Shown in pieces: positions 10,518-63,238 of a stretch of DNA of 64,000 nt (positions within the stretch are counted from its first letter, which is position 1; each line of letters starts with the position of its first letter). The stretch comes from Scyliorhinus canicula (lineage: Eukaryota): positions 122,439,727 through 122,503,726 of the forward strand of contig NC_052162.1 in the NCBI RefSeq assembly GCF_902713615.1, in the 5' to 3' direction. Made by a program: the position numbers and the translations under genes. The notes beneath the pieces were generated by a model. The model did no database searches, was not told the origin of the DNA, and saw only the letters and a program-made list of their open reading frames with translations.

Positions 10518-11475
10518 ATGTGAACATTAGGAAAGAGACCATTCTTTTAGCCAAATAAATGTGTCAAGCTGAGGGAGCAAAGGATGTCAATGTCTTTAAG
10601 GGAGAGAGAGACCTGGGCCAAGCTTTGCAGAGTCTGCACCCTCCCTGGATTCACTTCCTTTCCCTTCAGTTGCTGTAAGTCCCCAATGTCCCCCCAGAAT
10701 GAGAAAGGAAATGGAAAGGGGGAAACACTGAGCTCCCAGATGAGGAGGAAATTTTGGTCTGAAACTCATTGTCCAAGTTTCGAATTGTGACGTCACAATT
10801 GAGTCCTGCCTGAATCAACCAATAACAAATCACTCTGCTCCACGGTGACGTCTGCGGGTTCCAGTGCGCAGTCCCGTCCTCTTTGTTCCCCCTCCCCCGC
10901 CACCTCCTCCAGACAAGGTTTCCAGGCAACCGGCTGAGGGCTCCCGCCAGAGCGAGAAGCCGCTCAGTGATCTCCCCCCCAGGTCCGGTACTGCGCATGT
11001 TCAAAGGACGGGGTAGGTGCACATGTGCAGGGAGTCCCCGCCCCCTTGACCCACATGTCGAGGTATTGACCAATGGCAAACTGGGAGGACCGGAAGGACT
11101 CTTCTCCGCCAGCCGATCAGAGTTCCATCATTGTCTGCCTGCGGAGTTTGGAAATTGCGCTTGTTGATCTGCTCATTCCTGCCCAGGAAAGCTGCTGCTC
11201 CTCACTCTGAATGAGCTTGAGCATCACACCTCCTGTCTCCAACATCTGTGAGTAAAACGCTTTATTTTCTTCCCCTTTCCATTTATTTTCTCATTTTCAC
11301 CTTCAGTTGATCACTTGCAGCAACTGAAGGGAAAGGAAGTGAATCCAGGGAGGGTGCAGACTCTGCAAACCTTGGCCCAGGTCGCTCTCTCTTAAAGACA
11401 TTGACATCCTTTGCTCCCTCAGCTTGACAATTTCTTGTCTGGCTAAAAGGATGGTCTCTTTCCCAATGCTCACAG
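10518..11475. promoter_or_regulatory. inverted-repeat-flanked CpG-island promoter cassette
   Basis: arms ~10518-10720 and ~11270-11475 are reverse complements; core has an 18-bp palindrome aattgTGACGTCAcaatt (10783-10800), NRF1-like tgcgcatg, CCAAT (11070), CCGGAAG (11090); donor GTGAGT at 11248, acceptor at 11648. Confidence 0.75.
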
Positions 11476-12006: not shown

Positions 12007-12768
12007 ATGGAGAACCCGTGGAAATGTGGGGACTGTGGGAAGGGATTCAGATCCCCATCTGTGCTGGAAGCTCATCGACGCATTCACACTGGGGAGAGGC
12101 CATTCACCTGCTCTGTGTGTGGGAAGGGATTTGCTGTGTTATCCAACCTGCGGGCACACCAGCGAATTCACACTGGTGAGAAGCCATTCACATGCTCTCA
12201 ATGTGGGAAGGGATTCAGTGATTCATCCAACTTGCGGAATCATCAGCTAATTCACACTGGGGAGCGACTGTTCACCTGCTCTCAGTGTGGGAAGAGATTC
12301 TCTCAGATATCCCAGCTGAAGAGCCACCAACGGGTTCACACTGGCGAGAAGCCATTCACCTGCTCTCAGTGTGGGAAGGGATTCACTGAGTTATCCAGCC
12401 TGAAGAAACATCAGCGAGTTCACACTGGGGAGAGGCCGTTCACCTGCTCTCAGTGTGGGAAGGGATTCCGTGTTTCATCCGTACTAGTGAAACACCACCG
12501 GATTCACAGCGGAGAGAGGCCATTCACCTGCTCTGCTTGTGGGAAGGGATTTACTGAGCTATCCATATTGAAGAAACACCAGCGAGTTCACACTGGGGAG
12601 AGGCCATACACCTGCTCTCAGTGTGAGAAGAGATTCACTCGGTCAGACACCCTGCAGTCACATCAGCGAGTTCACACTGGGGAGAGGTCGTTCACCTGCT
12701 CTCAGTGTGGGAAAGGATTTATTCACTCATCCAGCCTGTGGACACACCAACGACTACACACTGGATAG
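12007..12768 (+). CDS. C2H2 zinc-finger protein, 9 fingers, no KRAB
   Basis: ATG at 12007 ([14 protein letters not shown]); nine CxxC..HxxxH repeats with TGEKP/TGERP linkers; decayed 10th finger after TAG. Confidence 0.9.
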
Positions 12769-24752: not shown

Positions 24753-25511
24753 TCACTTGTGGACTTGTTGGTGCCTCCGCAGGTGGGATGGATCACTGAA
24801 TGCCTTGTCACAGTGAGAGCAGGTAAATGGCCTCTCCCCGGTGTGAACTCGTAAGTGTGTCTGCAGGGTTGATGAATCACTGAATCCTTTCCCACACTGA
24901 GGGCAGATGAATGGCCTCTCCCCAGTGTGAACTCGCTGATGTGTCCGCAGGGTGGATGAATCAATGAATCTCTTCCCACACTGAGAGCAGGTAAATGGCC
25001 TCTCCACAGTGTGAACTCGCTGGTGTACCCGCCTGTTGGATACGTGAGTGAATCCTTTCCCACACTGAGGGCAGATCAATGGCTTTTCCCCTGTGTGAGC
25101 TCGATGATGTATTCGCAGGGTGGATGAATCACTGAACCCCTTCCCACACTGGGAGCACATGAAAGGCTTCTCACCAGTGTGAATACGTTGATGTACCCGT
25201 AGGTTTGATAAGTGAGAGAATGCCTTTGCACACTGAGAGCAGGTGAATGGCCTCTCCTGTGTGTGTACTCGCTGGTGTGACTGCAGGTGCGAGGACTGAG
25301 TGAATCCCTTCCCACACTGAGAGCAGGTGAATGGCCTCTGCCCAGTGTGAACTCGCTGGTGTGTCTGCAGGTGGGAGAACTGCATGAATCCATTCCCACA
25401 CTGAGGGCAGGTGAACGGCCTCTCCCCAGTGTGAATGCGTCGATGAGCTTCCAACTCTGATGGGGCTTTGTATCCCTTCCCACAGTCTCCACATTTCCAC
25501 GGTTTCTCCAT
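24753..25511 (-). CDS. C2H2 zinc-finger protein, 9 fingers
   Basis: ATG at 25511 ([14 protein letters not shown]), ends HQQVHK*; upstream intron 25833-26895 has GT..AG ends. Confidence 0.9.
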
Positions 25512-26619: not shown

Positions 26620-27385
26620 ACTGTCCCCTTAAATGTCAGCCATCTCCTGGGGAAACCTGCCCTTTAATTGTGAACATTAGGATAGAGACCATCCTTTTAG
26701 CCAGACAAATAAATGTGTCAAGCTGAGGGAGCAAAGGATGCCAATGTCTTTAAGAGAGAGACCTGGGCCAAGCTTTCCAGAGTCTGCACCCTCCCTGGAT
26801 TCATTTCCTTTCCCTTCAGTTGCTGCAAGTGACCAATTGAAGGTCAGAATGAGAAAAGAAATGGAAAGGTGGAGAAAAGAAAGTGTTTTACTCACAGATG
26901 TTGAAGACAGGAGGACGTTTCAGTCTGTGTGAAGCTCAATGGACATTCACACAAAGCTCGCACAGGAACAGTGAGCGGCCTCTACCCCGCACATGCGCAA
27001 CTTCCCCTCACACTTGAACATGCGCAGTCCCGGTGAGAGGGGGAGGTCCCGGCTGCTCATCGCTCTGGCCGGAGCAGCCGCTTGCCTGGAAACCGTCTCG
27101 TGGAGTTGCAGGGGAGGGGGAAGAATGGGTGGGGGCGGGGCTCCAGTGTCCACGCGCCGGACCTGCGCACTGGAACCCCGGGACGTCACTGCGGAGCAGA
27201 GTGATTCCTCTTGGCAGCTTCAGGCAGGGTTCCATTTCAACGTCACAATGCAAAAGTTGGACTAAAGCGACCCCATCTGGGCAACATCTGGGAGGAAATC
27301 CATGTTTCCCCCTTTCCATTTCTTTCCTCATTCTGGGGGAACATTGGTGACTTTCAGCAACTGAAGGAAAGGAAGTAAATCCAGT
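26620..27385. promoter_or_regulatory. ZNF promoter cassette (left arm with donor, partial right arm)
   Basis: donor at 26895 (-); catgcgca twice, GC box gggcggg, gacgtcac; right arm ~27305-27385 is a reverse complement of the left arm. Confidence 0.7.
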
Positions 27386-33465: not shown

Positions 33466-34200
33466 TCACAGCAGGTGCGATGAAATATGTAATCCTGTCT
33501 CACATGGAGAGGTGGATGGCGTCTCCCTAGTGTGAACTCGCTGGTGTCTCCGCAGGGTGGATAAACGAGTAAATCCTTCCCCACACTGAGAGCAGATCAA
33601 TGGCCTCTCCCCAGTGTGAACGCGCTGGTGTGTCCGCAGGTGAGATAATTGAGTGAATCCCTTCCCACACTGAGGGCAGGTGAATGGTCTCTCCCCAGTG
33701 TGAATTCGCTGGTGTCTTCGCAGGTTGGATACTTCAGCAAATCCTTTCCCACATTGAGAGCAGGTGAACGGCCTCTCCCCAGTGTGAACGCGCTGGTGTG
33801 ACTGCAGGTTGAATACTCGAGTAAATCCTTTCCCACACTGAGAGCAGGTGAATGGCCTCTCTCCAGTGTGAACTCGCAGGTGTCTCTGCAGGTGATATAA
33901 TTGAATAAATCCTTTCTCACACTGGGAGCAGGTGAATGGCTTCTCCCCTGTGTGAACTCGCTGATGTGTCTGCAGGGTGGATAACCGAGCGAATCCCTTC
34001 CCACACTGAGAGCAGGTGAGTGGCCTCTCCCCAGTGTGAACTCGCTGGTGTGTCTGCAGACTGGAGAACTGAGTAAATCCCTTCCCACACTTTGAGCAGG
34101 TGAATGGCCTCTCCCCGGTGTGACTGCGTTGATGAATTTCCAGCTGAGATGGGACTCTGAATCCCTTCCCACAATCCCCACATTTCCACGGTTTCTCCAT
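33466..34200 (-). CDS. C2H2 zinc-finger protein, 8 fingers plus a degenerate 9th
   Basis: [14 protein letters not shown] start; acceptor at ~34782. Confidence 0.9.
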
Positions 34201-34327
34201 GTTTTGGGTCTCCTCACGTCTCTCCAGGTTGGACAGTCAGTTGAAGCCTCATCCACAACACGGGTACGGTCTCTCCTCACTCTGAAGCTTGTTATGTTTT
34301 TCAGGCTGTGTAACTGGTTAAAGCTCT

Positions 34328-34625
34328 TTCCACAGTCAGTGCTCTGGAACACTCTCACTCGGGTGTGTGTGTCTCGGTGCTTTTCCAGTCACACTGATGT
34401 TTCCGCAGTCAGTTCACTTGAACACTCTCACTCGGGTTGTGTTGTGTGGGTCTCGGTGCTTTTCCAGTCACACTGATGTTTCCGCAGTCAGTTCACTTGA
34501 ACACTCTCACTCGGGTTGTGTTGTGTGGGTCTCGGTGCTTTTCCAGTCACACTGATGTTTCCACAGTCAGTTCACTGGAACACTCACTCGGGTTGTGTTG
34601 TGTGGGTCTCGGTGCTTTTCCAGTT
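34328..34625. repeat. ~79-bp minisatellite (about 4 units) in the ZNF 5' leader
   Basis: ttcc(a/g)cagtcag recurs at 34328, 34401, 34480, 34559. Confidence 0.9.
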
Positions 34626-35319
34626 GCACTAATGGTTGAAATGTTTAGCTAACAGTTCGGGTAAATATTTCTCCTTCTAGATTGAAAGCCCGATGGTTTT
34701 CAGGTTCCAAGGAAGGGAGTGGCTGTCAGATCGGGACGTAACGTTTGAGATTTCTGTCCGTAATTCCTCCTTGTCTAATATCCTGGAAGAAACAATTTAC
34801 AAAATTCATCACTGTCAGTGCAGGATTGAAACTCAGAATACACAATGCTAGTTTCTGTGTCACATTTTTTTCCTCTCTCTTATTCCCTGAGAGCTGTAAA
34901 TCTCCATCCCACACACTCTCCACTCTGCTGTATCTAATATTCACCCTCCCAATTCTCCTGTAGCAGAATTCATGTTGATTGACAGATCCAAGCTCACAGC
35001 TTCCTATCCAGGAGATCACAACAAATATGAGTTGCAGTCGGCCATTCGGCCCATCGAACCTGAACCATTCAATGGGATCCTTTGCCGATCTACCTCAGCC
35101 CCGTTTACCCACACTATCACCATGTCCCTCGACATCTTCAATATCCAGAAACCTGTCAATCTGTGTCTTGAACATACTTGACGACTGAAGCTCCAGAATT
35201 CTCGGAGGTGGAGAATTCCAAACCTTCACCACATCCTCGAGTGAAGAAATCCCTCCTCATCTCAGGTTTTTCTCAATTTTCCTGCCGGTTCCCCATAACT
35301 TGGGAGGGGGGGGGGGCAT

Positions 35320-41924: not shown

Positions 41925-43110
41925 ATGGAGCAGGTGAATGGCCCCTCCCCAGTGTGAACTCGCTGGTGTCCGCATGGCCGGTGCATCACTGAATCGATTC
42001 CCACACTCAGAGCAGATGGATGGCCTCCCCCACTGTGTACCTGCTGATGTGTCATCATATTGGAAGAATTCCTGAAACTCATCCCACAACTGGAGCAGGT
42101 GAATGGCCTCTCACCGGTGTGAACTTGCTTGTGTATCTGTAGATAAGTTGACCGAGTGAATTCATTTCCACACTCAAAGCAGGTGAAGAGCCTCTCCCCA
42201 GTATGAACTTGTCAGTGTGTTGGTAAGTTGGATGAATGACTGATCCCTTCCCACATTCAGGACAGGTGAAAGGCCTTTCCCCACTGTGACTGCGGCAAAG
42301 ACTCTCCAGCTTAGATTGGGAACTGAATCCCTTCCCACATAGAGAGCAGGTGAACGGCCTCTCTCCGGTGTGAATGCGACGATGCATTTCCAGCACAGAT
42401 AGAAATCTGAATCCCTTCCCAGCCACCACATTACCGCGGTTTCTTCATAGTTCGGATGCATTTGTGACTCTGCAGGCTGGACAATCAGTTCAAACGTCAT
42501 CCACACACAGAACACATGTACGGTCTCTCCTCGCTGTGAAGGATGTGATAACTTTCATTTGCTTTTTAATTAGTTACAGCTCTTTCCACAGTCAGTGCTC
42601 TGGAACACTCTCACTCGGGTGTGTGTGTCTCAGTGCTTTTCCAGTCACACTGATGATTAAAATCTTTTGAAGCTTCTGGACTTCCTGGCTCAAAGATAGG
42701 TACCTTGGTCAAAAGCAGCAGCACCCCCGGGGGGGGGAGGGGGGGGGGGGGTGTTCCTCATCATAGTTTCTATATTTTTTCGCTACGGTTATGTAACTTA
42801 ACATCGTGTTAATTTAAGTTGTTGTTAATATGTTGGGTTGTTCATTGAGGAGGGGCAAAGGTTCATGATTGGTATCATTACTGTTATCGTTGGTATTTTA
42901 GTATTGTTTGATGTCGTTGTACAAATTCAAAATTTTTCAATAAAAATTATTTAAAAAAAAAAAAAATCTTTTGAAGTGGACAGAACAGAAAACATTTCTC
43001 CTTCCAGCTTCAAAGGCCGATGATATTCCGGTCCCATGGAAACGAGTGAATCTATCAGATCGAGATATGACATTTGAGATTTGTGTGTGTAATTCCTCCT
43101 CTTCTAATAT
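41925..43110 (-). pseudogene. C2H2 zinc-finger pseudogene
   Basis: HTGERPF repeats with frameshifts and lost ligands; acceptor at ~43110; L1 insertion in the leader. Confidence 0.85.
42673..42962 (+). mobile_element. 5'-truncated L1 3' end with poly(A)
   Basis: 14-bp TSD aaaatcttttgaag (42659-42672, 42963-42976), TT|AAAA target, AATAAA plus A-tail. Confidence 0.85.
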
Positions 43111-43417
43111 CCTGGAAAAACAATATACAAAAGTTATCACTTTCAGTACAGGATAGAAATTCAGAACAGACAATTCTAGTTTCTCTCGAACATTCTTTCC
43201 TCTCTCATTCCCCAAAAGCTGTAAATCTCCATCCCACACACTCTCCCTCCATTCACACTTTGCTGTATCTAATATCCACCCTCCCAATTCTCCTGAAGGT
43301 GCTGATTCAGGCTGATTAACAGATCCAAGCTCAATGCTTCCTGTCCTGGACTCAGAAACATCAAAATTTAAATGCAGGCTGCCAGACAGATATATGTCTA
43401 TATTACTGGACTAAAAG

Positions 43418-43757: not shown

Positions 43758-43799
43758 TAAAAAATGTGTTCTGCCCCAAAAACTGTGTTTGATAAAGAC

Positions 43800-44312
43800 T
43801 TGATTCCCTTTCTTTCCCTTCAATTGCTCCAAATCACCAATTGAAGGTCAGAATTAGAAAATAAATGGAAAGGGCGGAAAATAAAGTCTTTTACTCACAG
43901 ATGTTGGAGACAGAATGAGGTTTCAGTCTGTGTGAAAGTCAATCTTCATTCAAACAAAGCCCGAGCTCTGATTGGCTGGAGGACCAGAGTCCTTCCAGTC
44001 CTCCAATAGTTTCCATTGGTTGCCGGCTGCCTGAAAGGGGATGTCACGTGTCGCTGGGAGAACTTTTGACTCGTGGAACGCAGACAATTTGGCCAATGGG
44101 ATTAGCACTATCCTGCACATGCGCTGCTGCCGCTCTCCCTTGGACATGTAGTCCCGGAGCTGCCCGTCCATGCGACGGATAGAGCGGGTTACCCAGAATG
44201 GGGCATTGTGGGAGGCGCGGTTGTCATTGCTCACCCGTGGCCCAGTCTCCTGGGACTGGAATGAGAAGCGTCACTCTGACACAAAGTACATGTGGGTGGT
44301 CACTGTATTTGA
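43800..44312 (-). promoter_or_regulatory. ZNF promoter/exon-1 module
   Basis: donor at 43898 (-), several CCAAT boxes, catgcgc, E-box cacgtg; homologous to 1380-1815. Confidence 0.6.
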
Positions 44313-44804
44313 TTGATTTCAGCCATCCCAACTTACCATTTAATAAATTCACTTTGGTTCAGACAAGACTATAACCAATTAAGACAAAGGCAAAATTCTC
44401 TGGATAGTAAATTTTAAAAGAAGTTTATTAAATCAAAATGGTTTACTGATCAACTTTGACGTTGACTATTTACAGCTTCATGCGGTGAAGCTGATGCGGT
44501 CATGATCAGTCTGTAGCAGCGTAACCCTCTCTGGTTCCTTCTTTGACAGTAATTCTTGTGGAATTCAGCCTTGGGAGTCTGGCTCCTTCTTTGGCAGAAA
44601 TTTCCTTGGAACTCGGCCTCAGGAATCTTCAGTACTTGGCCAGCAAGGAAGACCTTCAGAACCTCTACTTTTATCTCCAAAGTGACCATTACCTCACGTC
44701 AGAGTTGGGCCTGTTGTAACATGACCATTGGTCAATTTGGCCATTAGATTAATTTAATTGGGATCCCCAATTGCTTACACCAGCTTCTTTCAGTATCGTA
44801 GACA

Positions 44805-49960: not shown

Positions 49961-50731
49961 AGGACTTTATATCTGAGCAGCTGTGAAAATGAACGAAATG
50001 CAGCGCTGGATATAACCGAGAGCAGAAACAATAACACAAGCCAACTCCTGCCATCAATTGTGAACCTTTTGGTGTCTCAGTAGGTGGGAAGAATTACTGC
50101 ATCATTTTTCCTGTGGAGTTTTGTTCCTGAAAGGAATGTGTATTTGTTGCAAATATGTAATAAATCCTTAAATGCTCACAGATGTCTGTTTATTGACTAA
50201 TCTTTTCTTGCAATTTCCCAATCTCCCACACACAACCTGTCTCTCATACCTCGACAGTTTCCTTCTTTGAGAAACACCCAGAAAAATTAAACAAAGAACC
50301 ATGTAACCACTGTAGCCCATTTCATGGCAACGTGGCATGCTTTAGGGGGTTCCAAACAGAAATGGGAACTAAATATCTTCCAACTTCCAACATACTTCCA
50401 TTCTGTGACCCTTGTGAAATTGGAAACCATGTATTCGCAACAAAGCTGAAAGAGCATCAACCCACTGGAGGAAACGCTGCGAGGCCAGTCGTTCCAGCAG
50501 AAAGAAACCCCGACCATCCATATTGACCAATTGACAGAATGAATAAATTGAAGTTCCGAATGTAATTGAGAGCAGAAACAACAACAGCAGAATCCAATCC
50601 CGGCAATCATTTGTGAACTTGTTGGTGTCTCAGTAGTTGCGATGAAACACAAAATGTGTTCCCACATTGAGAGCAGATGAACGGCCTCTCCCTGTGGGAA
50701 CTCGTCGGTGTCTCCGCAGGTAGATGGATCA

Positions 50732-50998
<267 letters not shown>

Positions 50999-51697
50999 CT
51001 AAGAACAGATGAACGGCCTCTCCCCTGTGTGAACGCGCTGGTGTATCTTCAGGCTGGATAACTGAGCGAATCCCTTCCCACACTGAGAGCAGGTGAACGG
51101 CCTCTCCCCAGTGTGAATTCGCTGGTGTGTCCGCAGGGTGGATAAATCTCTGAATTCCTTCCCACACTGAGAGCAGGTGAACGGTCTCTCCCCAGTGTGA
51201 ACTCGCTGGTGTGCCTGCAGGTGGGGTGACTGAGTAAATTCTTTCCCGCACTGAAAGCAGGTGAATGGCTTCTCCCCAGTGTAAATTTGCTGATGTGACT
51301 TCAGGCTAAATAACGCAGTGAATTCCTTCCCACACTGAGAGCAGGTGAATGGCTTTTTCCCCGTGTGAACCCGTTGGTGTGACTTCAAGGTAGATAACAC
51401 AGTGAATCCCTTCTCACACTGAGAGCAGGTGAACGGTTTCTCCCCAGTATGAATTCGCTGATGTGACTTCAGGGTGGATGAATGTCTGAATCCCTTCTTA
51501 CACTGAGAGCAGGTAAACGGCTTCTCCACAGTGTGAACTCTTTCATGTGACTTCAGGCTGGATAATTCAGTGAATCCCTTCCCACACACAGAGCAGGTAA
51601 ATGGCCTCTCCCCAGTGTGACTGCGTCGATGAATCTCCAGCTTAGATCGGACTCTGAATCTCTTCCCACAGACTTCACATTTCCACGGTTTCTCCAT
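50999..51697 (-). CDS. C2H2 zinc-finger protein, ~8 fingers, ended by a premature TAG
   Basis: ATG at 51697 ([14 protein letters not shown]); 5th finger lacks its last His; further fingers continue past the stop to ~50610. Confidence 0.8.
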
Positions 51698-52319
51698 GTT
51701 TTGGGTCTCGTCGTAACTCTCCAGATCTGACAACCAGTTGAAGCCTTGTCCACACACAGAACACGTGTACGGTCTCTCCCCGCTGTGAATGGTGTGATGT
51801 TTTTTCAGGCTGTGTAACTGGTTAAAGCTCTTTCCACAGTCAGTGCTCTGGAACACTCTCACTCGGGTGTGTCTGTCTCGGTGCTTTTTCAGTCACACTG
51901 ATGTTTAAAATCGTCTGAAGCGAACGGAACAGACAAACATTTCTCCTCCCTTCTCGATTCAAAGGCCGATAATATTCAGGCCCCGATGAACCGAGCGACT
52001 CTGGCAGATCGAGATGTGACTTTTGAGATTTCTGTCTGTAATTCCTCCTCTTCTAATATCTTGTAAAAACAATTTACAAAAGACATCATTGTCAGTAAAG
52101 GATAGAAACTCAGAACAGACAATTTTAATTCCTCTGGAACATTTTATCCTTTCTCACTCCGCAAAAGCTGTAAATCTCCATCCCACACACTCCCTCCATT
52201 CTCACCCTGCTCCACAACGAGTGAAGAACTCCCTCCTCATCTCAGCTTTGTCTCCATTTTCCTGCCTGTTTTCCATAACCCTGGACTCCCTGGTCATCAG
52301 AAATCGGTCTGGATGGGAA

Positions 52320-54355: not shown

Positions 54356-54374
54356 TTTTGGGATGGTGGACATT

Positions 54375-55335
54375 ATGAAAGAGACCATCCTTTAACCAGA
54401 CAAATAAATGTGTCAAGGTGAGGGAGCAAAGGATGTCAATGTCTTTGAGAGAGAGAGACCTGGGCCAAGCTTTCCAGAGGGTGCCTCCCTGCAATGACTT
54501 CCTTTCCCTTCAGTTGCTGCAAGTGACCAATTGAACGTGAGAATGAGAAAAGAAATGAAAAGGGGGAGAAATGAAAGTGTTTTACTCACAGATGTTGGAG
54601 AGAGGAGGAGGTTTCAGTCTGTGTGAAGCTCAATCTTCATCCACAGATAGCCCGCGCTGCTTGGTTGGAGGAGAAGAGTCCTTCCGGTCCCAACTCTTCC
54701 CATTGGCCAATACTTCAGCAGGCATGTCAGGGGAAGGGCGTTCCCTCGCACACGCGCAGCCTCTCCTCCCTCTTGGACATGCGCAGTCCCGGGCCGGGGG
54801 GAGGGGAGATCACCGAGCGGCTTCTCGCTCTGGCCGGAGCTGTCAGCCGGTTGCCTGGAAACCTTGTCTGGAGGAGGGGAAACAATGAGTGGGGCAGAGC
54901 TGCTGTGTCCGCGCGCCGGGCCTGCGCACTGGAATCCTGAGACGTCACCGCGGATTCCTCTGCGTGCGCAGGAAAGTTGTTGACCAATGGGAAGAGTTGG
55001 TGAACCGGAAGGATTCTCTTCCGCCATCCAATCAGCTCCCCCCGTTGTCTGAATGCGGAAGCTGTACAATGAGGAAACCTGGGACCTCACACAGACTGAA
55101 AACTCTTCCTGTCTCCAACATCAGTGAGTAAAACAATTTATTTTCTCATTCTCACCTTCAATTAGTGACTTGCAGCAACTGAAGGGAAAGGAAGTGAATC
55201 CAGGGAGGGTGTAGACTCTGGAAAGCTTGGCTCGGGTCTCTCTCTTCTTAAAGACATTGACATCCTTTGCTCCCTCAGCTTGACACATTTATTTGTCTGG
55301 CTAAAAGGATGGTCTCTTTCCTAATGTTCACAATT
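54375..55335. promoter_or_regulatory. complete bidirectional ZNF promoter cassette
   Basis: ~340-bp inverted arms, each with CCAAT, CCGGAAG and an outward-facing GTGAGT donor (54589 -, 55124 +), serving the ZNFs at 51697(-) and 56658(+). Confidence 0.8.
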
Positions 55336-55968: not shown

Positions 55969-56657
55969 TCGATCGGCCAATGATCCCACAGAATAAACGA
56001 GCAGGGTCGATGAGCTGAATGGCCGTCTGCAGCTCCTATTTGTTATGATCTGTGTGTCCAGGACACGAAGCTGTGAGCATAGATCTGTCAATCAGCCTGT
56101 ATCAACACCTTCAGGAGAATTGGGAGGGGGAATATTAGATACAGCAGAGTGAGAATGGAGGGAGGGTGTGTGGGATGGAGATTTACAGCTTTTGTGGAAC
56201 AAGAGAGGAAAGAATGTTCTCTAGGAACTAGAATTGTCTGTTATGAATTTCTAACCTGTACTGACAGTGATGTCTTTTGTAAATTGTCTTTACAGGATAT
56301 TAGAAGAGGAGGAATTACAGACAGAAATCTCGACCACCAGCTCTCAATCTGACTGAGTCTCTCAATTCCTTGGAACTGAATATCACCGGACATTGAATCT
56401 GGAAGGAGTAATGTTTGTCTTTTCTGTCGGCTTCAAAAAATGTTAGCCATCAGTGTGACTGGAAAAGCACCGACACACACACACACTACTGAGTGAGAGT
56501 GTTCCAGAGCACTGACTGTGGAAAGAGATTTAACTAGTTACACAGCCTGAAAAAACATCACACCATTCACAGTGGGGGGAGGCTGTACACGTGTTCTGTG
56601 TGTGGACGAGGTTTCAACTGATCGACAAACCTGGAGAGACACGAGGACACCCCCACC

Positions 56658-57428
56658 CTGGAGAAACGGTGGAAATGTCGGGAATGTGGGAAGGGATTCA
56701 GGGCTCCATCTCAGCTGGAAGCTCATCGACGCATTCACACTGGGGAGAGGCCGTTCACCTGCTCTGTGTGCGGGAAGGGATTCATTCAGTTATCCGCCCT
56801 GCAGACACACCAGCAAGTTCACACCGGGGAGAGGCCGTTCATCTGCTCTCAGTGTGGGAAGGGATTCACTCGGTTCGGTAACCTGAAGATGCATCAGCGA
56901 GTTCACACTGGGGAAAGGCCGTTCATCTGCTCTCAGTGTGGGAAGGGATTCACTCGGTTCGACAACCTGCGGATACATCAGCGAGTTCACACTGGGGTGA
57001 GGCCGTTCACCTGCTCTCAGTGTGAGAAGGGATTCACTACTTCATCAAGCCTGCTGAAACACCAGCAAGTTCACAGTGGGGAGAGGCCGTTCACCTGCTC
57101 TCAGTGTGAGAAGGGATTCACTACTTCATCGAGCTTGCTGTCACACCAGCGTGTTCACACTGGGGAGAAGCCGTTCACCTGCTCTCAGTGTGGGAACAGA
57201 TTCACTCAATCGTCCGACCTGCAGAAACACCAGCGAATTCACACTGGGGAGAAACCGTTCACCTGCTTTCAGTGTGAAAAGGGATTCGCTCGGTTATCCA
57301 ACCTGCGGATACATCAGCGAGTTCACACTGGGGAGAAGCCGTTCACTTGCTCTCGGTGTGGGAAGGGATTCACTCAATCATCCCACCTGCAGACGCACCA
57401 ACGAGTTCACACAGGGGAGAAGCCGTAA
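56658..57428 (+). CDS. C2H2 zinc-finger ORF, 9 fingers; start codon is CTG where paralogues have ATG
   Basis: CCACC-CTG-GAG-AAA-CGG-TGG-AAA-TGT, in frame with ORF 56766-57428; intron 55124-56295. Confidence 0.7.
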
Positions 57429-61303: not shown

Positions 61304-61970
61304 TCATAACCAAGTGACTCTTCCAAATCCTGAAGTCTTTTTTTCTGCAAATCATCATCTAATATCGTGTAAAAGGTATTCACAAATGGAAATTAAGAAC
61401 AGACAGTTCTAGTTCCTGTGAAACATTCTTTCCTCAAAAGCTGTAAATCGCCATCCAACACTCTCCCCCTCCATCTCACTCTGCTGTATCTAATATTCAC
61501 CCTCCCAATTCTCTGAAGGTGCTGATTCAGGCTGATTGACAGATCCCTGCTCACTGCTTCCTATACTGGACAGAGGCCTGAAATTCTCCATGCAGACTGC
61601 CAGACAGAAATATGTCTATATTACTGAACTAAAAATGTGTGCAACATACAGATTGGATTCACTTCCTTTCTCTTCAGTTGCTGCAAGTCACCAATGTCCC
61701 CTCAGAATGAGAAAATAAATGGAAAGATAAAGTAGACTTGGAGCAGCTGCTGCCTCTTGCGGGGCATTCCAGAATGAGAGGTAACAGTCTTACGATAAGC
61801 GGTAGCAAATTCAAAACAGTTATAATTTTAAAATAAATTCAGTGTACCCAACTATTTTTTTTACAATTAAGGTGCAATTTAGTGTGGCCAATCCACCTAC
61901 TCTGCACATCTTTGGGTTGTGGGGGTGAAACCTACACAGACACGGGGAGAAAGTGCAAATTCCAGACAGT

Positions 61971-62124: not shown

Positions 62125-62404
62125 CAGACAGTAACCCAGGGCCGGGATTGAACCCAGGTCCTCAGTGCCGTAGACAGCAGTGCTAACCACTGGCCAACGT
62201 GCTGCCCTATTCAAAACAGAGTTGAGGAGAAACTGCTTCTCCCAAGGGCTGTGAATCTGTGGAATTCACGACCCCAGAGTGAGGTGGAGCTGGGACAGTG
62301 AGTAAGTTTAGGGAGGAGTTAGACAGGTTTTTAATCGGTTTGAAGGATTATACTTGATGGGTGAAATGGCCTAATTCTGCTCCTATATCTTATGACCTTC
62401 TGAA

Positions 62405-63238
62405 AGGGGGAGACATTGATTTGCTCCCAGATGTTGCCCAGAGGAGGAAGTTTTAGTCTGAAACTCATTGTCCAACCTCCACATTGTGACATCACAAAGG
62501 AGCTCGTCCTCTGAATCAACCAATAGGAATAAATCCGTTCCGCAGTGACGTTATGCATTTGAGCCCACCGGCGCGGTGCGCGGACACGGGAGCTCCGCCC
62601 CCGCCCTTTATTCCCCTCCCCCAGCACATTGTCAAGTCGGTTTCCATGCAACCGGCTGACAGTTCCGGCCGTTGTTGCCCCCCCCCCCCCCCAGACCCGG
62701 GACTGCGCATGTCCAAGGGGAGGAGAAGTTGCGCATGTGCCGGGGAGCTCACTTCTGCTGACCTTACTGCTGAGGATTGACCAATGGGAAGATAGGAAAA
62801 CCGGAAGGACTCTGTTCCTCCGCCAATCAGAGCTCCCCCATTTTCTCAATGCGGAAGCTGGACATGGAGGTTTGTGCCGAGCAAAGCTGTTGTTCCCCCA
62901 ACCCTGAGTGAGCTTGAGCTGCACACAGACTTAAACCTCCTCCTGTCTCCAACATCTGTGAGTAAAACACTTTCTTTCCTCGCCCTTTCCATTTCTTTTC
63001 TAATTCTCACCTTCAATTGGTCACTTCCAGCAACTGAAGAGAAAGGAAGTGAATTCAGGGAGGGTGCAAACTCTGCAAAGCTTGGCCCAGGTCTCTCTCT
63101 CTTAAAGACATTAACATCCTTTGCTCCCTCAGTTTGACACATTTATTTGTCAGGCTAAAAGGATGGTCTCTTTCCTAATGTTAACAATTACAGGGCTGGT
63201 TTCCCCAGGAGATGGCTGACATTTAAGGAGACAGTAAA
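62405..63238 (+). promoter_or_regulatory. ZNF promoter/exon-1 module for a plus-strand gene beyond the right edge
   Basis: tgcgcatg twice, CCAAT x3, GC box, CCGGAAG; donor GTGAGT at 62958; homologous to 10730-11475. Confidence 0.7.

Follow-up and report, generated by a model that had tools for sequence, protein, structure and literature searches.

A repeated head-to-head zinc-finger gene unit in a shark: predicted two-way promoter and probable ectopic recombination between its intron blocks

Several described systems share parts of the architecture reported here. The chorion A and B genes of the silkmoth comprise dozens of divergent gene pairs that have a short common promoter and have been amplified as pairs; a short exon 1 and a large exon 2, gene conversion, pseudogenes and pairs in both orientations are described for them in the available part of that source (PMC4639761). 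The same text places chorion A and chorion B in two distinct branches, whereas the left- and right-side genes of the shark locus are mixed. The promoter cassettes of the shark, referred to as hubs, also differ from chorion in having near-identical inverted arms on both sides and, in one case, a promoter inverted between its genes.

A second related system is the BGW element of the BEX/WEX/GASP genes, a 5' non-coding segment in which conversion preserves a higher similarity than in the coding region and gives rise to chimaeric genes. As far as the available text goes, BGW concerns about 20 mammalian genes, an exonic motif and raised G+C (PMC1274310). The shark segment, in contrast, is mostly intronic and is present in hundreds of copies and as an inverted pair; the words 'inverted' and 'bidirectional' are absent from the main text of the BGW paper in its available form.

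Large lineage-specific clusters that grow by segmental duplication and non-allelic recombination and contain many dead copies have been described, in the available parts of the respective papers, for the KRAB-ZFPs of mouse (PMC11952569) and the FiNZ-ZNFs of cyprinids (PMC10547256). The proteins of these families carry an N-terminal KRAB or FiNZ exon, whereas most of the shark frames start 6 residues before finger 1. The recombination in mouse is ascribed there to ERVs (PMC11952569), whereas the visible crossover site in the shark is the shared intron block. Amplified divergent pairs with conversion, conversion of 5' non-coding segments and recombining ZNF clusters are all known already from the available parts of these sources.

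Bidirectional CpG-island promoters of vertebrates are CpG-rich and TATA-less and have a motif set of NF-Y, GABPA and NRF1. They usually join unrelated genes, lack mirror homology and are single-copy, whereas the shark hubs are mirrored and repeated. Pack-type non-autonomous DNA transposons capture pieces of host genes. A dispersed element of the shark genome is similar to them in its terminal inverted repeats, 8-bp target duplications and captured gene pieces including an intron, and differs in carrying the promoter of a vertebrate ZNF gene together with exon 1 and donor. No description of the shark architecture has been found in the open literature, including the available parts of PMC8455134 and PMC10208646; the supplement of PMC10547256 gives ZNF counts per species, which may include sharks. 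What appears to be new here is the inversion of a promoter through its arms together with gene swaps between hubs.

The cassette at 54.4 kb, its genes and the other hubs of the window

The window, i.e. the whole stretch of DNA analysed, comprises 64,000 nucleotides of the 4.22-Gb genome of Scyliorhinus canicula (C17:122,439,727-122,503,726, where C17 denotes NC_052162.1). The initial annotation had described at 54.4 kb a palindromic cassette with inverted arms, a CpG core, promoter motifs and outward-facing donors, and all of these are present according to alignment, motif scan and CpG count (Table 1). The inverted alignment of the arms 54363-54710 and 54980-55334 shows 76% identity over 376 columns (E 2e-77), with ungapped pieces that are 82-95% complementary; the arm-versus-arm local score is 415, and 20 shuffles reach at most 40. 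The spacer between the arms is 269 bp long and has a CpG o/e of 0.73 vs 0.43 window-wide. ETS and CCAAT motifs face outward in both arms, the second CCAAT box of the left arm being degenerate, and no TATA match is found within 54560-55150. The core contains what we take to be NRF1-like motifs at 54748, 54778, 54923 and 54965 and a CRE-like motif at 54940. GTGAGT donors begin at 54589 (-) and 55124 (+), 535 bp apart. The cassette thus has the layout of a bidirectional promoter (head-to-head, first exons less than 1 kb apart), with a CpG island, no TATA and CCAAT/ETS/NRF1-like motifs. Its core is predicted from the sequence to be a two-way promoter, from which NF-Y, ETS and NRF1-type factors may drive divergent transcription.

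Table 1. Coordinates in the window of the features of the 54.4-kb cassette, its two genes and the other five hubs
Feature	Position	Strand	Remarks
Left arm	54363..54710	-	promoter motifs, end of non-coding exon 1, donor, intron-1 block
Left 'a-type' promoter module	54654..54715	-	CCAAT 54702-54706, ETS 54681-54687; predicted from motifs
Left GTGAGT splice donor	54584..54589	-	splice of the family backed by spliced genomic copies
Left intron-1 block (putative exchanged segment)	54366..54589	-	
CpG core	54711..54979	.	non-palindromic
Right 'a-type' promoter module	54975..55039	+	CCAAT 54984, ETS 55005, CCAAT 55028; predicted
Right arm	54980..55334	+	
Right GTGAGT splice donor	55124..55129	+	
Right intron-1 block	55124..55334	+	no RNA family match or excess folding
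Left gene, exon 2	50613..52060	-	acceptor CAA, ATG 51697, 11 fingers, in-frame stop after finger 7
Right gene, exon 2	56296..57425	+	CAG acceptor at 56295, CTG at 56658, 9 fingers, single open frame
One-armed hub, C-type core	788..1899	-	arm interrupted by repeat inserts; closely related to the transposon cargo
Asymmetric a/b hub	10519..11474	.	live 9-finger gene 12025-12759 (+); decayed gene 9330-10201 (-) on dead-donor side
Asymmetric hub	26669..27384	.	9-finger gene 24759-25493 (-); pre-exon-2 remnant on dead-donor side
One-armed C-type hub	43799..44349	-	leads to decayed gene 41928-43324
Asymmetric a/b hub	62402..63185	.	9-finger gene just past the window end; dead side in pieces 61308-61732

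C2H2 arrays are located on both sides of the cassette (50613-51679, minus strand, and 56676-57410, plus strand). The proposal that the cassette feeds ZNF genes in both directions holds for the presence of the arrays, but both genes are damaged, the left one by its CAA acceptor and the stop, the right one by its CTG. The CAA is private to the 54.4-kb copy, its three sister hubs having CAG; the CTG, which sits in an ACC-CTG-G context, replaces the ATG of the family in all four sister hubs. A CUG start of the right gene is possible. The exon-2 leader of this gene has stops in all frames. An upstream ATG in right exon 1 (55053-55123) would, after splicing, read in frame into an acidic segment, ILEEEELQTEIS (56296-56355), followed by a stop; the segment recurs in paralogues, and its frame is possibly an upstream frame or the relic of an N-terminus.

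A motif spanning the junction of exon 1 and exon 2 (one mismatch allowed) has 7 matches, all of them outside the C17 cluster described below, and its control has 0. Six of the matches continue into the sequence of either exon and represent pieces of spliced mRNA; the seventh is a chance match. These spliced genomic copies support the intron of the ZNF family, not that of the 54.4-kb copy itself. Two other off-cluster loci (L067 and L068) are copies of b-side genes with the arm joined straight to exon 2, and L068 extends from the far end of the core to the vicinity of an A-rich run. Were L068 a retrocopy, the right-side start would have to be adjacent to the left promoter; neither a target duplication nor a canonical junction is seen in L067 or L068, and they have not been used to place the start. 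In L069 and L070, a short spliced piece of a ZNF 5' region is joined to other sequence, which in L070 is presumably the 5' end of a LINE.

The genes had been described as KRAB-less, and their proteins do consist of fingers only. KRAB is not among the best 25 Pfam families for each of four frames (29-40 families matched); a genome search for KRAB gave none among 74 candidates, its control likewise being without any match. As many as 62 of 81 Met frames begin 6 residues ahead of finger 1, and most frames leave no room there for a 28-residue N-terminal FiNZ on its own exon. The best identities of the finger proteins are 64-70% with ray proteins, among 120 matches listed that are mostly generic finger arrays, and the leader region shows 51% identity with a basking shark protein. 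These identities point to a cartilaginous fish but do not suffice to date the family.

The cassette had also been reported to recur six times in the window. Six hubs are indeed found, but two of them (0.7 and 43.8 kb) lack a second arm and are built around another core. The hubs take three forms, namely symmetric a/a (54 kb), asymmetric (10, 26 and 62 kb), in which a different right promoter is accompanied by a dead donor, and one-armed (0.7 and 43.8 kb). Pseudogenes are not confined to the donor-less side as had been stated, since in both one-armed hubs of the window it is the side retaining its donor that leads to a decayed gene, with 2 fingers in each case. The window also contains an 8-finger gene at 33532-34987, separated from the decayed gene at 42-43 kb by sequence in which it has no hub of its own, and a tandem array at 4068-9262 made up of ~1.26-kb units that are 92% alike.

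The C17 cluster and the zinc-finger family beyond it

The best 40 matches to the right arm lie at 111-127 Mb of C17, bar one on a small contig. A 21-mer of the intron block has 347 exact matches, and 97 of the 100 listed fall in this cluster; a 17-mer of the dead donor has 99 matches, 95 of them in the cluster. Hubs were surveyed in seven gap-free blocks of C17 111-127 Mb (1.57 Mb in total), which were hand-picked, four of them around known matches, so that the symmetric form is likely to be overstated in the counts that follow. The blocks encode 79 hubs, of which 63 have the main core and 16 are one-armed. The main-core hubs comprise 16 a/a, 38 a/b, 6 a/none and 3 none/b forms; 41 of the 63 have a different right promoter, and 26 have GT donors on both arms when scored by alignment. 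Fully symmetric hubs number 12, and 9 of these have arrays on both sides.

The association of hubs with finger arrays is close, 93 of 110 arrays of at least 4 fingers in the seven blocks being located within 11 kb outward of a hub. Arrays are present on both sides of 26 of 62 main hubs. Met-started frames of at least 4 fingers occur on both sides of 19 of the 62, on one side of 33 and on neither side of 10, which agrees with the suggestion of gene death on either side. A right-side GT donor leads to such a frame in 22 of 28 hubs and GG in 4 of 18, the copies not being independent. Extrapolation from this sample, rather than counting, gives an estimate of ~800 hubs and ~1,100 arrays for the whole 16 Mb.

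Two suggestions of the initial annotation are not upheld by the survey. There is no support for the symmetric form as the amplified unit, since it accounts for only 12 of the 63 hubs, mostly from one shallow clade, nor for a loss of donors copy by copy, the dead donor being shared as one 17-mer. In an unrooted tree of the cores, from which 9 of the 63, being short, were left out, 11 of the 16 a/a cores group in one shallow clade (94/97), which is nested in a star of a/b lineages. The right arm of a/a hubs has the a-type promoter joined to sequence that is common to the b arms on both sides. The symmetric form is therefore rather likely to be derived and not ancestral, a later subfamily in which the a-type promoter would have replaced the b-type one; it could be ancestral, because the core tree is unrooted and a single clade of all 16 a/a hubs is not rejected (p 0.126).

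The family extends well beyond the cluster. Its start motif has 922 matches genome-wide, and at a density of 20-28 per Mb the cluster would hold roughly 320-450 of them; half or more of the ZNF family lies outside the C17 cluster, head-to-head but without this cassette. A variant of the motif, chosen for its rarity in the cluster, has 17 of its 97 matches there and 69 on small scaffolds. Six off-cluster regions (200 kb, three picked as visible pairs) contain head-to-head genes around CpG promoters, without the core and without the paired block, from which the head-to-head layout appears to be family-wide and the mirrored arm particular to the C17 cluster. The view of the cassette as the hub of the whole ZNF expansion is thus not supported. 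Another head-to-head ZNF hub, at C17:130,588,400-130,589,900 (L208), has an older inverted symmetry of its own (score 121 vs at most 39 in shuffled sequence) and a likeness to the 54.4-kb cassette that is marginal at most. Near-parallel head-to-head ZNF pairs with a first intron of 6-8 kb on one side are found on three small scaffolds, C306, C102 and C37 (L199-L204).

A dispersed hAT-type element with related promoter cargo

An 18-mer of the donor has 558 matches, and 98 of the 100 listed are outside the cluster. Among 15 off-cluster matches sampled, 13 (L049-L055, L057-L059 and L061-L063) are copies of one element of 1.5-2.2 kb, 96-97% alike, and the other 2 are chance matches. The element has 16-bp terminal inverted repeats, with both ends found in 10 of the 13 copies, and an 8-bp target duplication that is perfect in 9 copies and has one mismatch in 1. 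Short terminal inverted repeats and an 8-bp duplication are the features of non-autonomous hAT-type elements, and we take hAT to be its superfamily. The cargo includes a one-armed promoter, exon 1, the donor, the start of the intron and a broken four-finger piece that is 92% like the decayed gene just left of the window. Some copies have a tandemly duplicated promoter module.

The cargo junction has 103 matches, with none of the 100 listed in the cluster, and the right end of the transposon family has 1,072. Transposon ends are absent from the hub borders in the seven blocks, save for one copy inserted into an arm. A 3.7-kb family member without the cargo junction, flanked by an 8-bp duplication, is present inside an arm block at C17:120,081,656-120,085,371 and shows how the transposon family reaches the cluster. 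The tie of the cassette to ZNF genes is loosened by the 103 transposon-borne one-armed copies off the cluster, but these carry the broken finger piece. A literature search for an element with ZNF promoter cargo gave no matching description.

Divergence of the arms, gene swaps and inversion of a promoter

The tree of arms is based on 81 arms, those with fewer than 200 aligned positions being excluded. The arms are ~91% alike overall, regardless of side. The identity of left and right arms within one hub is 0.904 (13 hubs) and that to other hubs is 0.911, and in each of the 13 the left arm of the same hub comes no higher than 18th, and as low as 80th, among 80. Since own arms are no closer than foreign ones, the exchange is not within the palindrome; homogenisation from arm to arm inside one cassette, which would make own arms most alike, is ruled out by the same comparison. 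The genes of the right side are not a clade (AU p 0.007), left- and right-side genes being mixed in the tree.

No part of the unit is better conserved than the 230-bp intron block, which surpasses the fourfold sites of the fingers. Its identity among 20 live genes is 93.5% (91.8% for the first 70 columns), compared with 86% for the exon-1 end, 82% for the fourfold finger sites and 74% for the exon-2 UTR; cores are 76% identical. The block is thus a non-coding segment that is more alike than its flanks and has a separate history, as in concerted evolution. For 601 distant pairs the divergence of the block relative to its flanks is 0.40; for 15 disjoint recent pairs it is 1.27 (58 of 885 pairs having been dropped for short overlap), the latter value being inflated because the recent pairs were chosen for low flank divergence. 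Several recent pairs differ by 7-12% in the block vs 4-10% in the flanks. A rate set by constraint only is rejected at p<0.001 by 6 of the 15 recent pairs, and 9 are compatible with it. Near sites are more strongly linked (r2 0.049) than far ones (r2 0.024; permutation p 0.004), and the overall correlation of r2 with distance is near zero (rho -0.015). Constraint alone does not seem to fit this pattern of divergence, and conversion in trans among many arms would be the best reading of the homogeneity of the block.

The proposal of a head-to-head unit with homologous inverted arms that was amplified as a block agrees with the 27 of 37 nearest-gene pairs that keep both side and core. The hub of the window is 97.9% identical over 11.3 kb to that at C17:114,041,990, 8 Mb apart, although such near-identical sister hubs could include assembly duplicates. 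The remaining 10 of the 37 pairs do not keep side and core. The core of the hub at C17:117,598,703 differs by 2.9% from that of the window hub, but its left gene differs by 1.2% from the left gene of a hub whose core is 17.6% away; this sister of the window hub has taken its left gene from an unrelated hub. In another pair, the two genes stand on opposite sides of hubs that are unrelated.

That the arms could promote inversions is supported by a single case. At C17:124,246,820 the central 800 bp are collinear with three sisters, and both flanks match the opposite sides for kilobases, the side-specific intron sequence being exchanged just after the block. The flanks are 85-93% alike, and the homology used is 230 bp. 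This hub is best described as a promoter inversion with crossover in the block, one old, fixed event that shows no sign of a programmed switch; a recombinase switch is marked by a dedicated recombinase, short sites and both orientations within one individual. Among 52 hub pairs, orientation is flipped in 4, the same in 13 and unclear in 35, and all 4 flipped pairs involve C17:124,246,820.

These observations make it probable that the cassette is one copy of a head-to-head unit repeated over ~16 Mb, with a predicted two-way promoter, in which ectopic recombination likely homogenises the blocks, swaps genes and can invert the promoter. The unit may have originated by an old inverted duplication, and its promoter has the same exon-1 end and the same 230-bp intron block on either side. 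Gene conversion, with some purifying selection, would keep the blocks alike, and recombination between them would re-pair genes with promoters and could turn a promoter round between its two genes. Such events would be germline events on an evolutionary time scale and not a regulated switch.

A different role for the block, as a functional element (an enhancer of splicing or of transcription, or a small RNA) under purifying selection with the swaps and the inversion as side effects, appears unlikely. Arms ahead of live genes diverge from the majority by 4.3% (n=45) vs 5.6% (n=33) for those ahead of dead genes (p 0.008); given the smaller distance of the former, selection accounts for some of the arm conservation. 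Several dead arms are also on long branches, and gene survival tracks donor state. Yet the block is evenly conserved over its length (0.94-0.97 per 20 columns), dead arms retain 94% identity to the majority, and in some recent pairs the block differs more than both flanks. A small RNA is rejected for the block, the best Rfam score being 24 bits against gathering scores of 34-80 and the fold z being -0.16.

It is improbable that one inverted duplication gave a symmetric two-gene unit that was amplified as such, with independent loss on each side. Whole units do duplicate with both genes, as seen with C17:114,041,990, and the 12 fully symmetric hubs include 9 with both arrays, but the different right promoter in 41 of 63 main hubs, the 16 one-armed hubs among 79, the shared dead donor and the failure of left and right arms and genes to fall into two clades speak against it. 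The long inverted arms, and the dispersal of a related one-armed promoter in 103 transposon copies, could also suggest that the cassette itself is a mobile element with terminal inverted repeats inserted between genes. This is very improbable and the cassette is rejected as a transposon: its arms are parts of genes (exon end, donor, intron) continuous with the flanking introns, its two-armed form is confined to the cluster (97 of 100 block matches listed, 95 of 99 b-arm matches), and the mobile ends belong to a separate family, absent from hub borders save for the one insertion.

Beyond recombination as the probable origin of the swaps, a bolder and rather doubtful extension is that the intron-1 block is a selected recombination socket, placed ahead of each gene on either side of each promoter, through which about a thousand effector-less ZNF genes would be re-paired with promoters, flipped and revived. 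It would then serve germline shuffling in a transposon-facing gene family, while a DNA transposon spreads the promoter to a hundred loci elsewhere. The turnover of ZNF repertoires outside tetrapods and cyprinids is little described, and here one chromosome arm presents the amplification unit, the crossover site and the likely products, namely gene swaps and a promoter inversion. The young transposon, with copies 96-97% identical, is a source of CpG promoters with a splice donor at ~100 loci. Should exchange be what the block is maintained for, this family would reassort its regulation and its DNA-binding specificity as modules.
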